This document shows positions 1 through 4,799 of a stretch of 4,799 nt of DNA, one piece after another (within the stretch, counting starts at the first letter, position 1; every line of letters starts with the position of its first letter). The translations under genes and the position numbers were made by a program. The DNA comes from a virus (Duplodnaviria; Heunggongvirae; Uroviricota; Caudoviricetes): IMG/VR virus record IMGVR_UViG_2654587726_000008. The stretch is one strand, 5' to 3'. The notes beneath the pieces were generated by a model. The model saw only the letters and a list, made by a program, of their open reading frames with translations. It was not told the DNA's origin and made no database searches.

Positions 1-447
1 GGCTGGCATGTTGATCTGCCAGTAATACCGCCATTCCGGCGCATTCACCTCGTCAGTACAGGCCGATGAGCAGGTGAAGGTGCTTTTGTCGTATCGCGTG
101 ATGGTGGCATCTGGCCTGCCCAGGGCAGCAAGCTGTGCAAGATAAAAATCCTCGTTGATGCCGCCCGCCAGGTTAACCTTCGCATCCAGCCGTTGCTGAC
201 GCTGGCGAAGGGTCTGTGTCCCTGCGGGAATACATTCATCCGGCAGACCGCACAGACGCTCCCAGCGGTTTATCAGTTCAGTGGTGGTGCGCGGATCCAG
301 CTCCCGCATCAGGGCATCCGCACGCTGATGAACGCGGGTTAATGACGGTGCCGCACCGGCAATCGCCGGATCGCTGGCTGACCACGCCGGACCGGGGGGC
401 AACAGTGCCGACAACAGACGGATGTAATCATCGTTTGTCACGTCCAT
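1..447 (-). CDS. Mu gp48-like tail/baseplate protein (DUF2313 family); 5' portion only, ORF continues beyond window start
   Basis: Not in the ORF track because no stop lies in the window. Hand translation of the minus strand from ATG (plus 445-447) gives [149 protein letters not shown], open for 149 codons to position 1. The N-terminal Y-x-x-LL-x-LLPP pattern is as I recall for gp48/DUF2313 proteins. GGGGA Shine-Dalgarno-like motif 7 nt upstream of the ATG; the start overlaps the preceding gene's stop by 10 nt (438-447); position matches Mu gene order. Confidence 0.75.
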
Positions 448-1499
448 GAAATCGTCCCCAGAACCGCCAGTTCATTTTTCGCAATGGAGATATTGTCTGC
501 CGGTGCAAGCAACTGATGGCTATATTCCCCGTTCGCACCGGAAATCGCCTCACTGATACGCGATACCTTCAGTTCTCCCTGCGGATAACCATCACGCAGA
601 AGAAACGAACGCAACTCCGCGGTGATGGCAGCCCGTATTTCCGGTGTGTCCGGCGTCACGCGGATATGAAAATCCACCGTATGCGCCACCGGCCTGAATA
701 CATACAAATCAGAGCCTGCCACCGGGGCCAGTGGCACAATATGTTGTCTTGCCGCCGTTTCCGTTGATTCTTCCGGAATGGGATTAATCAGGTCACTGCT
801 GGCAATCATCACACCGACAGTTCCCGTTCCCATCCAGTGACGGTATGTCCATGCGCGGGTAATGCCGGGCACTTCTTTAGCCCAGACGACATAGTCCACG
901 TCAGCCCCGCCCTGAGGCGTCCAGTAATACCGCTCAATGACGCGGGCGCGCCACGTTTCCAGATCTTCAGTATCAAATCCGCCTGTAAGGGTGTCAGCCA
1001 CACCGGAAGACGGCAGACCATTCACCGGCGTGACCAGGATTAATGACGTACCGTCGTCAGCGTTACCGACCGCACCTGAACTTGAGCAGGCGATCGGCAC
1101 GCGCAGGACACCACCGGAGCTGGTTGCATCGGCAGTTGCCGTGTACTGAACCAGGTCATCGCGCTGAATAACACTCCCGGCGGTCACCTTCAGGCCATCA
1201 TCGCTGACACCTTCCCAGCGCATATACCCGCTGGCAGCCGTGGCCCCCTTGCGCGGACACCGTTTCATCGCAGCATGTCGCGCCAGCCAGGACTCATCGC
1301 ACAGGTCAGGCAGCATGTTCATTGCCAGATAATCGATGTAACCGTAAACCGTATGCAGCGCCGCCGCATACACCTTTGCCCGCACGTCTTCATCCATGCG
1401 CCGGAGCGTGTCGCTGACGTCCAGCCTGGCGAATAAATCGTTACGGAGCATACTGATATTTTCTGCCAGCGTCGGGCGCTGAAATTCACTGTCCGCCAT
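438..1499 (-). CDS. Baseplate J-like protein (Mu gp47-like baseplate wedge component)
   Basis: 353-aa ORF from the track; start (cat at plus 1497-1499) and stop (tca at 438-440) verified by hand. Size and position between the GP46-like and DUF2313-like genes match Mu gp47 / Baseplate_J; family assignment is from recall plus synteny, not a search. Confidence 0.85.
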
Positions 1500-1914
1500 G
1501 CGTTATCGCACTCCACAGATCATCAAAAGAAATCATTACCGGTCCGTCACGACGCCAGAGAGTGATACTGTTACCCAGTTCATTAATCCCGGTGCGGCGG
1601 ATATCCAGATCAATACGGGACACCACGCCGTCATCAATCATCCATTGCAGGCATTCGCGGATATACCCCCTTACCGTCTGCACCAGCTGATTGGTCAGTT
1701 TGCTGCGCTGAAGCAGCCACAGTCGGGAGCCGTAACGGTCATTCTGTACCGCAGGCCAGGTATCCCCCCACCATCCCATCGGGACGTCGGCGTTGTCATC
1801 AGGCTCCGCCCGCCGCCAGGTAAACAGGGAAATCACCACGGCGCGGGTCAGCGGATCCAGTTGTGCGCTGGCGCAGGTGCGTTTACCGTTCACCGTCAGC
1901 CACAGTTCCATCAT
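1486..1914 (-). CDS. Phage GP46-family protein (Mu gp46-like; T4 gp25-like baseplate wedge)
   Basis: 142-aa ORF from the track, typical GP46-family size, sitting between the spike and baseplate J genes. Start ATG overlaps the upstream stop as ATGA (1911-1914); GGAGG lies immediately upstream, and the second in-frame ATG (MM...) has the better spacing. Its 3' end overlaps the next gene's start by 14 nt. Confidence 0.8.
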   Translation of the reverse strand: MMELWLTVNGKRTCASAQLDPLTRAVVISLFTWRRAEPDDNADVPMGWWGDTWPAVQNDRYGSRLWLLQRSKLTNQLVQTVRGYIRECLQWMIDDGVVSRIDLDIRRTGINELGNSITLWRRDGPVMISFDDLWSAITHGGQ

Positions 1915-2459
1915 GCCTCCATCGCTTTATCAGGTTTGTCGGTGTTACTGCCCTGACCGTTCTCTCTGTGACGATGCCCGTTATAGGCAAGCCGCATCGC
2001 TGACATGGTGGTGCCGCCGGAGTCGCACAGGTCTTTCACCTGTCCGGTCACTTCCAGGTCCATTTCAAAACGTGCCTCAGGCGCATTGCGAAACGTGATC
2101 GTTTTACCTGCACCGTCCACCACGATCCCCTCCCGGGCCAGCGTCACGGACTGCCCCTGATCGTCATAGACAGCCACCTCACCCGTCTGCAGCCCTTTCA
2201 GGCGGTAGCGACGGTCCGACACCGTAACAACCACCGCATGAGAACGGTCGCCATCCGGAAACAACACCACCGCTTCCGCACCGCTGTTTGCCCTTGCGGT
2301 AAAACCGTAGGGTTCAAGATGTTCAACCCCGGCTTTGGGTTCACCGGCAATCAGGGACACATCCACGGTCTGACATTTCGTGGCGGCACTGATGCTTTTC
2401 ACCACGGCCCGCCCAATCAGGCCGAGGAGTTGTCGCTGCATGGCTTCAATCGTCCTCAT
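1911..2459 (-). CDS. Baseplate assembly protein V / central spike (Mu gp45-like, gpV/gp5-like OB-fold spike)
   Basis: 182-aa ORF from the track; the N-terminal half (MRTIEAMQRQLLGLIGRAVVKSISAATKCQTVDVSLIAGEPKAGVEHLEPYGFTARANSGAEAVVLFPDGDRSHAVVV) resembles the Phage_base_V family as I recall it. Start ATG overlaps the hub gene stop (TGATG-type junction). Confidence 0.85.
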   Translation of the reverse strand: MRTIEAMQRQLLGLIGRAVVKSISAATKCQTVDVSLIAGEPKAGVEHLEPYGFTARANSGAEAVVLFPDGDRSHAVVVTVSDRRYRLKGLQTGEVAVYDDQGQSVTLAREGIVVDGAGKTITFRNAPEARFEMDLEVTGQVKDLCDSGGTTMSAMRLAYNGHRHRENGQGSNTDKPDKAMEA

Positions 2460-3538
2460 CAGAACGGGTCCTCCTGTACTCTGGCTTTTTTCTTTTTCCG
2501 CGCGCCGGGGGCTTCGGGTTCAGGCAGATAAGCATCAGGCGGGCCGACACGGATTTCCGTCAGGGTGCCGTTCTGGTCCTGAGTAAACGTGACTTCCGAA
2601 ACAAGCAGTTCGGTATTGTCGAAACCACAGACCGGATCAAAGACAATCACCCGCTGGTTGGGCTGCCACAGCGTACCGTTACCCTGTCGCCAGCCCTGCA
2701 CCAAATAGGTGGTTTCATCCGTCCGCGCCGCCCGTTGTCGGGCTTCAAAGTCAGCACGCGCAATACAACCTGCCCCCGTAGCCTGCCCTGTCTGCCTGAT
2801 ATACATCGGACGGTAACGGGCAATAAATGCGTCCTCTGTGCGGGCCCGCAGCGCGGTGGTGGTGGCCTCACCGAAATCATCGTCGTTCCCGGCACGCTGC
2901 CCCGCCACCTGGTAAACAGAAAACCGCTCCCGGATACTCTTCTCCGTATCACAGGAAAGGATGTTTTCCCCAAGTACCAGCGCAGTATGTGCCCGCGTTG
3001 AGCCAATACCGCCAATCACCAGCCTGCCGTGCGGGTCGTCGTAAGCCAGCGCCTGCTGCTGACCGAGTATTTTGTTGATTACCTCAATCACCGTTTCACC
3101 GTGATCAGGCTGAACATCAGGAATAACACCCGACGGCGCACCGCTGTTCACCACCTCAATGCCGAAAGGCGCAGCAAGCGCCTGCGCAATCTGCACCAGC
3201 GAGCGTCCGTTAAACTGTGTCGGTTCGGCTGCACAGTCAATCAGGTCAGCCGTCAGACTACGTCCGGCAATACCGGTGCTGACCGAACGGGCATCGTAAC
3301 GAACGGGAGTCGCCTCCACCCAGCCGGTGATCACCAGCTCATCACCAATCAGCACTTCCACTTTTGAACCGTTTTTAATGCGCGGCTGAAGCGTGGTGAT
3401 ACCCTCATCTCCCGGCCACTGGTGAGTGATCTCCACACTGAAATCCCGCGCCAGCCGTTCAATACCGGCACCGATGCGCACCGATGTCCAGCCATTCCAC
3501 TCCCGGCCATTTACCCGTAGCGTGACATTGTCGTTCAT
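2459..3538 (-). CDS. Baseplate hub protein (Mu gp44/P-like, late-control-D / gp27-like family)
   Basis: 359-aa ORF from the track, immediately upstream of the spike gene as in Mu (P then Q). Start ATG overlaps the upstream stop as ATGA (3535-3538) and is preceded by AAGGTG 8 nt upstream. Ends in a Lys-rich tail (...PEPEAPGARKKKKARVQEDPF). Confidence 0.8.
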   Translation of the reverse strand: MNDNVTLRVNGREWNGWTSVRIGAGIERLARDFSVEITHQWPGDEGITTLQPRIKNGSKVEVLIGDELVITGWVEATPVRYDARSVSTGIAGRSLTADLIDCAAEPTQFNGRSLVQIAQALAAPFGIEVVNSGAPSGVIPDVQPDHGETVIEVINKILGQQQALAYDDPHGRLVIGGIGSTRAHTALVLGENILSCDTEKSIRERFSVYQVAGQRAGNDDDFGEATTTALRARTEDAFIARYRPMYIRQTGQATGAGCIARADFEARQRAARTDETTYLVQGWRQGNGTLWQPNQRVIVFDPVCGFDNTELLVSEVTFTQDQNGTLTEIRVGPPDAYLPEPEAPGARKKKKARVQEDPF

Positions 3539-4731
3539 TGCACTGGCACCTTCAGAGGGATCACCGGCACAAAGCCGGGATGCGTAATGGCATTACGCCG
3601 GATAATGTCCGCGTCACGCGCCGCGTTATCAAACCAGGTCGCCGCCAGCACCAGCGCGGGTAAAACCTCATCCGGTGTGCGCTGAATGATCCGTGCAGAC
3701 TGTTCAAGGCGCGTGTTGATATCCGCATTCAGATCTGCTTTCACCCGGCGCAGCGCCAGAAACAGCGCATCACTGGTTGTACGGGACAACTCCTTATCAA
3801 TTGCCGTATTCAGTGTGTCGCGAATGTCAGTCAGTTCTTCCCACGTCGGCAGGTCAACCGTGTTTTTCACCGCCGGTGCATTGTTCAGTGCCGGATGCGT
3901 GACGGAAGGCCAGCCAGTGCTCTGCGCAGGTGTTGTTGCCTGCCCCACTGCGGAATTCTGCATCACCGCGGAAGTTGTTGGCGCAGGCAATCGGATGACG
4001 GCATACGCCGCTTCACTGATTGCGGTCGTACGAAGGGTGCTGGCAACCACATTACGCTGCTGCGTAGCCGTGGCGGTGGTTTTACTGTCCGTTTTCCAGA
4101 CACCGCGCGGTTGCAGATCGCTGCCGAGGCTGACACCGGAAAGCGTTTTGATCATGGTGACCAGGTCGCTGGCGTTACCATAAAGGCGTTTCCCGGTACG
4201 CCACATTTTCTGCACCTGCTCAACGAGATTTTTGCCTGACGATGGTGGCGGCAGAAGTACCGAGATATCCCCCTGCAACAGCCTGGCAGCATCCGATACG
4301 GCAGAATCCACCACTTTCATCGCATCAGAAACATACCCAAGCATTGTGCTGACATTACCAACGACGTCGTTCTGCACGAAATCCGCCACGCCATCGATAC
4401 TGAAACCTCTGAAGCTGTCACTGATGCAGTCATCCAGTGCAGAACAGGATGACATCAGCGTCTGCGCCGTCGCCGCACCTGAAGTGGGGTAAGAGAGTTC
4501 TCCCGCTTCGACAAACTTCAGGTCAAAGCGGACAATACGCCCTTCACTCTTCGATGTGCTGACCCGAACTTCCCCGTCAACACAGACTTTCAGCTCACCA
4601 TATGTCGGGTGGACAAGCGTGCCGGGACCGGGTTTATTCAGCGCTTCAATCAGGCGATCTCGCTGGTCAAAGCAGTCATCTCCCACCACATAAGCTGTGA
4701 TGGATGGATTTGCCCCTATATTTCCAGACAT
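3535..4731 (-). CDS. DNA circulation protein N-like (Mu gp43-like); possibly N-terminally short relative to the family
   Basis: 398-aa ORF from the track. The N-terminal region AYVVGDDCFDQRDRLIEALNKPGPGTLVHPTYGELKV...FVEAGELSYP matches the conserved core of the DNA_circ_N domain as I recall it; a Thr/Ala/Ser-rich central region follows. Position directly upstream of the hub gene matches Mu N. Start is the first ATG after in-frame stops at 4735-4740 and 4750-4752; no strong SD. Confidence 0.75.
   Translation of the reverse strand: MSGNIGANPSITAYVVGDDCFDQRDRLIEALNKPGPGTLVHPTYGELKVCVDGEVRVSTSKSEGRIVRFDLKFVEAGELSYPTSGAATAQTLMSSCSALDDCISDSFRGFSIDGVADFVQNDVVGNVSTMLGYVSDAMKVVDSAVSDAARLLQGDISVLLPPPSSGKNLVEQVQKMWRTGKRLYGNASDLVTMIKTLSGVSLGSDLQPRGVWKTDSKTTATATQQRNVVASTLRTTAISEAAYAVIRLPAPTTSAVMQNSAVGQATTPAQSTGWPSVTHPALNNAPAVKNTVDLPTWEELTDIRDTLNTAIDKELSRTTSDALFLALRRVKADLNADINTRLEQSARIIQRTPDEVLPALVLAATWFDNAARDADIIRRNAITHPGFVPVIPLKVPVQ
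3582..3607 (-). promoter_or_regulatory. Candidate operator / internal promoter element: perfect 17-bp palindrome plus a third copy of the half-site
   Basis: Plus strand 3582-3598 is GCGTAATG-G-CATTACGC, a perfect 8+1+8 inverted repeat. A further TAATG lies at 3603-3607, giving TAATG / CATTA / TAATG in alternating orientation. It sits 44-70 bp upstream of the hub gene ATG (3538), inside the 3' end of the DNA-circulation gene. Function is not demonstrated. Confidence 0.2.
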
Positions 4732-4799
4732 CTGTTATCACTTAACCCATTACAAGCCCGCTGCCGCAGATATTCCCGTGGCGAGCGATAACCCAGCGC

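Follow-up and report, generated by a model that had tools for sequence, protein, structure and literature searches.

A tail gene of the DNA_circ_N family that begins unusually late, close to the end of a phage contig, raises the question of where its N-terminal part has gone and what the sequence in front of its predicted start represents. The window, that is, the whole stretch of 4,799 bp analysed here, is the entire draft contig JHRH01000225.1 of assembly GCA_001265395.1, the only contig on record that encodes the exact 398-aa product. A sequence-only reading had called this protein N-terminally short and had left several ways to account for it: the missing segment could lie in another frame through a frameshift, the gene could be a pseudogene, a tape-measure gene could end just upstream, or the protein could simply be a short family member. 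Comparison with phage, prophage and insertion-sequence records makes us very confident of a different account, in which an IS2 element would have inserted into the tail-tube-initiator gene of an SfV-like, Mu-type prophage and the contig would have been split at the element.

Identity of the shortened gene and of its upstream sequence

The 398-aa ORF on the minus strand starts at ATG 4731-4729 and ends at 3535 in the ORF list. Direct reading of that strand agreed with the earlier description of its surroundings. In frame, the sequence 5' of the ATG is ...AGLSLATGISAAAGL-stop-WVK-stop-stop-Q-M, the stops being TAA 4752-4750, TGA 4740-4738 and TAA 4737-4735; the remaining two minus-strand frames end at TAA 4744-4742 and TAG 4718-4716, and all three frames are without a stop from 4799 to at least 4752. 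No Shine-Dalgarno-like purine run is present in the 25 nt 5' of the ATG (CTTGTAATGGGTTAAGTGATAACAG), again as had been noted, and the conserved core does begin about 17 residues after the start, its GDD first appearing at residue 17.

Profile comparisons locate the shortening within the conserved N-terminal domain. Pfam DNA_circ_N (PF07157) aligns to residues 8-49 of the ORF over profile positions 47-88 of 88 only, whereas SfV gp15 (447 aa) and the homologue from E. coli MB10 (442 aa) are both matched over positions 2-88. Likewise, PHROG 184 matches the ORF from profile position 49 to 408 of 411. Altogether, about half of the conserved N-terminal domain is lost, and the protein is short at its N-terminus as had been claimed. 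A complete domain with homologues of the same length and the same start, which would have spoken for a normal gene, was not what these searches returned: the other members listed in the 90%-identity cluster of the protein have 442 aa, with one of 456 aa.

The remainder of the protein is well preserved. The ORF shares 98% identity without gaps with residues 52-447 of SfV gp15, and the DNA of the gene fragment is about 99.3% identical to that of E. coli prophages. Over its 389 native residues the amino acid identity to Shigella phage SfV orf15 and to the E. coli 'DNA circularization protein' (442-447 aa) is 98%, and both SfV orf15 and the window gene lie upstream of the gp44-gp48 baseplate genes; the window copy differs in lacking the first 53 codons (58 in the SfV annotation), in place of which it carries nine IS2-derived codons. 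The intact gene itself is annotated with different starts: in SfV an ATG 15 nt further upstream (L001 2830) gives 447 aa, and PGAP starts at MTWK... (L004 2845) to give 442 aa. That upstream ATG codon is absent from the E. coli lineage, where the reading is ...FGVYMTWK.

The alignment with Mu gp43 (N; PDB 9ki1) and prophage homologues that had been proposed earlier was also carried out. Residues 15-438 of the intact SfV homologue align to residues 26-485 of Mu N. The relationship is distant (E = 1e-14), and Mu N exceeds the intact SfV-type protein by about 50 aa; the two are collinear and have in common the DNA_circ_N domain and the arrangement of genes, with the hub, spike and wedge genes following. 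With 495 aa, the Mu N chain in the PDB agrees with the earlier remark that Mu N-type proteins are longer. Through SfV gp15, to which it is 98% identical and which aligns up to residue 485 of 495, the window protein retains the helix-rich C-terminal region collinear with Mu N, while it is shorter at the N-terminus and lacks the first half of the tube-like domain. Judged by these comparisons, the window copy is a gene fragment of the DNA_circ_N/Mu gp43-type family, and the earlier reading was right that the protein is without its N-terminal part and that the gene may be a pseudogene.

The sequence in front of the fragment is not of phage origin. Megablast of window positions 3500-4799 split the query cleanly in two. 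From 4707 downward the window agrees at 97-99% identity with SfV-like prophages from E. coli and Shigella, in which the matching gene is annotated "DNA circularization protein" and is followed by baseplate genes. Phage records and thousands of E. coli records carry IS2 copies that match the 95 nt from 4799 to 4705 at 100%, and the terminal 95 nt of the 1,331-bp IS2 in U82084 agree with them without a mismatch. In a three-way alignment the window tracks IS2 to ...GGGGCAAATCCA (4705) and SfV orf15 from TCCATCAC (4704) onward, the switch falling between ...AAATCCA and TCCATCAC. IS2 is bounded by imperfect inverted repeats, the right one 41 bp and the left one 42 bp long (PMC3299598), and the right repeat (IRR), ending in ...GGGGCAAATCCA, is recognisable here. 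The frame that ends at TAG 4718-4716 is identical in 27 of 27 amino acids to residues 275-301 of IS2 ORF2 (AAD10297), and the annotated ORF2 of U82084 ends at the base corresponding to this TAG. OrfB/InsD, of which the C-terminus alone lies within the window, thus reads toward the IRR and ends just inside it. This is the real coding frame; the frame ending at 4742-4744, picked earlier as the most gene-like, is non-coding.

The 398-aa ORF itself starts within the element. ATG 4729-4731 sits in the right inverted repeat, IS2 DNA supplies codons 1-9 (MSGNIGANP), and the native phage sequence sets in with Ser10; at the position of MSGNIGANP the native homologues read ...GKVTFRP. The MSGNIGANP head is an accidental in-frame fusion with a non-native start. 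The three in-frame stops and the missing Shine-Dalgarno motif are explained in the same way, because the sequence is IS2 DNA, namely the C-terminus of InsD in another frame followed by the IRR.

The partner contig and the target-site duplication

A simple insertion with a 5-bp duplication makes a definite prediction for the other side of the element. The left junction should read ...CGC CCG TCC AT/T AGA CTG GCC CCC TGA, the slash marking the border with IS2, and should encode a 59-aa ORF consisting of native residues 1-53, then Ile and RLAP, from TCCAT and the IS2 left inverted repeat (IRL). Six variants of this peptide were built from SfV and E. coli MB10, with alternative starts and with Ile or Val at residue 49, and an exact-identity lookup in the protein collection found one of the six, MTWKDRLQDASFRGVPFKVEEESAGTGRRVETHEYPNRDKPYTEDLGKVTFRPSIRLAP. 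The peptide predicted in advance was thereby borne out exactly. It is encoded on four contigs, among them JHRH01000245.1 (4,540 bp), which belongs to the window's own assembly.

The gene order on JHRH01000245.1 is tail sheath, tail tube, tail assembly chaperone, tape measure, a 176-aa ORF and the 59-aa fragment, so that in window and partner contig together the gene has the tape measure on one side and the hub, spike and wedge genes on the other. The contig ends 94 nt into the left end of IS2 (TAGACTGGCCCCCTGAATC...), where the left inverted repeat (TAGACTGGCCCCC...) is present and positions 4447-4540 match the reference with 3 mismatches in 94 nt. TCCAT stands directly before this left end (positions 4442-4446) and directly after the right end in the window (4704-4700), a 5-bp direct target-site duplication. 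When the two contigs are joined without IS2 and without one copy of TCCAT, an uninterrupted 442-aa ORF results, identical in 435 of 442 residues to the intact E. coli protein WP_417715615; only after this in-silico removal is the N-terminal DNA_circ_N (tube-like) domain complete. The features of both contigs are collected in Table 1.

Table 1. Positions of the IS2 remnants, gene fragments and neighbouring genes on the two contigs
Feature	Contig	Position	Strand	Basis
Last 95 nt of IS2, including the right inverted repeat (IRR, 41 bp, ~4705-4745)	window	4705-4799	-	0 mismatches to U82084 IS2; contig stops inside IS
3' end of IS2 orfB/insD: last 27 codons ALGYRSPREYLRQRACNGLSDNRCLEI and stop TAG 4718-4716	window	4716-4799	-	27/27 aa vs AAD10297
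IS2-derived head of the 398-aa ORF (ATG 4731-4729 and 8 codons, MSGNIGANP)	window	4705-4731	-	100% IS2 match; no Shine-Dalgarno or promoter-like site
Right copy of the 5-bp duplication TCCAT	window	4700-4704	-	TCCAT also at JHRH01000245.1 4442-4446
3' fragment of the SfV gp15/Mu gp43 (N) homologue, codons 54-442 and stop, without the first 53 codons	window	3535-4704	-	SfV gp15, Pfam and restored-ORF comparisons
Baseplate hub gene (Mu gp44/P homologue)	window	2459-3538	-	ORF list; Pfam GpP-like domains; SfV orf16 synteny
gp45-like spike	window	1911-2459	-	Baseplate module, synteny with SfV orf17-19
gp46-like	window	1486-1914	-	Baseplate module
gp47/baseplate J	window	438-1499	-	Baseplate module
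gp48/YmfQ-like	window	1-447	-	Baseplate module; cut by contig end, 149 codons left
610-aa tape-measure gene	JHRH01000245.1	1767-3599		
176-aa ORF	JHRH01000245.1	3691-4221		
59-aa fragment	JHRH01000245.1	4283-4462		

The IS2 copy in the int gene of Shigella phage SfX (U82084) offers a close comparison. Its right-end 95 nt, including the IRR and the OrfB/InsD C-terminus, are identical to the window, its left end matches the partner contig in 91 of 94 nt, and in both cases IS2 disrupts a prophage gene. The targets differ (the integrase in SfX, codon 54/55 of the tube-initiator gene here), as do the 5-bp duplications, GCCTG on both sides of the SfX copy and TCCAT here; furthermore, the SfX element is read over its full 1,331 bp, while the copy in the window assembly is known from its two ends. 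The left end on the partner contig (L006 4447-4540) departs from the SfX copy (L002 365-458) at positions 32, 42 and 43 (CAATATCACTTAAATAAG vs CAGTATCACTTATTTAAG), all of them inside or adjacent to the 42-bp left inverted repeat and the OrfA-binding region described for IS2.

The sequence of events would then be as follows. IS2, an IS3-family element (1,331 bp in the reference copy) whose copy-out, paste-in transposition proceeds by way of a figure-of-eight intermediate and then a minicircle (PMC3299598), would have inserted at codon 54/55 of the tail-tube-initiator gene, entering between the second and third base of codon 55 in the 442-aa numbering, in the orientation of the phage late genes and with duplication of the 5 bp TCCAT. 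A short-read assembler, unable to cross the multicopy element, would have split the locus into two contigs, each reaching about 95 nt into IS2, of which the window is the downstream one. In the right inverted repeat a chance ATG happens to be in frame with the phage gene, and hence gene callers report a 398-aa ORF composed of nine IS2 residues and native residues 54-442. The matching ends and the shared duplication lead us to infer that the two contigs are linked by one intact 1.3-kb IS2. A pair of IS2 copies separated by other DNA, or an inversion between IS2 copies in which both ends were kept, would be compatible in principle; the matching TCCAT on both sides favours a simple insertion over either of them. 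The 3' fragment, undamaged over its length, fits a recent insertion.

The left junction, with the identical codon and the same 59-aa peptide, is also found in GCA_001265315.1 (L005) and GCA_001265765.1 (L008), whose accession numbers neighbour that of the window assembly, and in a metagenome scaffold (L007, ENA ERZ28627441). In L008 it is followed by 206 nt of the IS2 left end, including the start of orfA. The recurrence of this junction in further assemblies and a metagenome indicates an insertion allele common to a lineage and not to one isolate. For the right junction, a 36-nt pattern gave 0 exact matches in the GTDB species-representative genomes, and megablast against 5,426 complete E. 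coli genomes gave no match covering at least 80% of a 101-nt probe; this absence from complete E. coli genomes and GTDB representatives points to a lineage-specific insertion.

Other accounts of the locus

Among the competing accounts, the one that fares best accepts the insertion and holds that the IS2-phage fusion ORF is translated, through transcription that reads out of insD and translation from the ATG that precedes the insD stop by 13 nt, to give a truncated product with residual or altered activity. We consider this improbable. The fusion ORF is indeed in frame and, apart from the truncation, undamaged; insD is co-oriented, its stop overlaps the start of the fusion ORF, and a simple consensus-match scan predicted no terminator-like site in 4500-4799. 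Against it, the ORF has no Shine-Dalgarno motif, and the same scan of 4500-4799, here a weak negative, found no promoter-like site on the gene strand and gave no support for an outward IS2 promoter driving the gene fragment. The product would also be missing about half of the tube-like domain on which the hexameric barrel depends, and a recent insertion would leave the 3' part undamaged just as well.

A more far-reaching version of the same idea, to which we attach an even smaller chance, is that the chance ATG in the IRR, overlapping the insD stop, would be used by translational coupling to make a truncated initiator that acts as a dominant-negative defence factor. If so, it would hinder tail assembly of related Mu- or SfV-like phages, superinfecting or co-resident, and retention of the allele would fit with the occurrence of the junction in a metagenome and several isolates.

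A contig that ends in a multicopy repeat, with a join at which the sole homology is a few bases (CCATCCA), could alternatively be an assembly chimera, the gene being intact in the real genome. Both junctions, however, occur on separate contigs of one assembly with matching TCCAT, the signature of real IS2 transposition, and no intact version of the gene was seen among those contigs of GCA_001265395.1 that were examined. Since two other assemblies and a metagenome scaffold assembled independently show the left junction as well, a chimera is very unlikely.

The possibility that a tape-measure gene ends at 4742-4752 and that the 398-aa protein is naturally short yet complete has next to nothing left in its favour. 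Length in itself is not abnormal: distant members with solved structures, PDB 9rku (9rku_A1) and 8fqc (8fqc_U1), happen to have 398 aa as well, so that length alone would wrongly suggest a normal short member. Those two proteins nevertheless align from their own residue 13-14 to the N-terminus of the intact SfV protein and possess the whole N-terminal domain, whereas the ORF in the window is without DNA_circ_N profile positions 1-46 and its close homologues among the cluster members listed all have 442 aa or more. A short family member is rejected on these grounds. A tape-measure C-terminus at 4742-4799, sought as PhageMin_Tail/TMP continuity, was likewise rejected: the DNA there is IS2, and it is the partner contig that carries the real tape-measure gene, of 610 aa, which ends 684 nt before the true gene start, with the 176-aa ORF in between.

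Equally negligible is the chance that a frameshift or sequencing indel has put the N-terminal segment into another frame of 4732-4799. Each of the three minus-strand frames does stay open for at least 47 nt at the contig end, yet none of them resembles the missing MTWKDRLQDASFRGVPF... segment, one is InsD, the DNA is 100% IS2, and the missing 53 codons stand intact beyond IS2 on JHRH01000245.1.

Consequences for the prophage and its annotation

The recently determined structure of the Mu virion identifies gp43 as the hexameric tail-tube initiator, whose N-terminal tube-like domain forms a β-barrel that seeds tail-tube assembly (PMC11915804). In the IS2-interrupted gene, residues 1-53, approximately the first half of this domain, are parted from the rest of the protein. 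We infer that the tail-tube-initiator gene is inactivated and that neither fragment could form the barrel; with about half of the tube-like domain lost, functional tails are probably beyond the capacity of this prophage. The insertion is probably also polar on the downstream hub, spike and wedge genes. The hub gene overlaps the end of the disrupted gene by 4 nt, and the baseplate genes that follow overlap each other by 1 to 14 nt in the ORF list, an arrangement that suggests coupled expression.

In practical terms, the 398-aa "DNA circularization protein" on the window contig is an annotation artefact, an IS2-phage fusion ORF that should be flagged as a pseudogene fragment, and the prophage should be scored as probably tail-defective. 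All components of the locus are already known, namely IS2, the SfV-type prophage tail module, insertional inactivation and contig breaks at IS copies; the one thing that finished genomes do not seem to have on record is this insertion site. The value of the case is chiefly that of an annotation lesson and it holds no new biology. The trap is a general one: draft contigs that end a few dozen bases inside an IS yield spurious start codons and upstream "frames", and a quick search of contig ends against known insertion sequences is the remedy. A contig end about 95 nt inside a multicopy IS is the usual way in which short-read assemblies break. The run into IS2 before the contig stops is 95 nt in the window and 94, 96 and 85 nt at the partner loci (L006 and the ends of L005 and L007, respectively); such runs of 85-96 nt are the signature of a k-mer-limited assembler and could serve to mark ORFs that an IS has cut short at a contig end.

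The other end of the window is of a different kind. Positions 1-600 are continuous prophage DNA in approximately 1,376 complete E. coli genomes, which means that the break at position 1 is no IS junction; its probable cause is a repeat that other prophages also carry, for example in the tail-fibre region or in ymfQ paralogues.

The region between the tape-measure and tube-initiator genes also differs between lineages. In the E. coli prophage lineage it holds the 176-aa ORF (L006 3691-4221; L004 2253-2783), which phage SfV lacks; there, 45 nt separate the two genes. Searches of this ORF gave no match in Pfam or PADLOC, and its sole PHROGs match is to a family of unknown function, phrog_5485 (full length, E = 6e-108). 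The ORF is followed, just before the true start of the gp43-like gene, by a terminator-like hairpin, AAGGCCACCTTCTAATAGGTGGCTTTTTTATTTT, and its layout looks like that of a moron, an inserted cargo gene.
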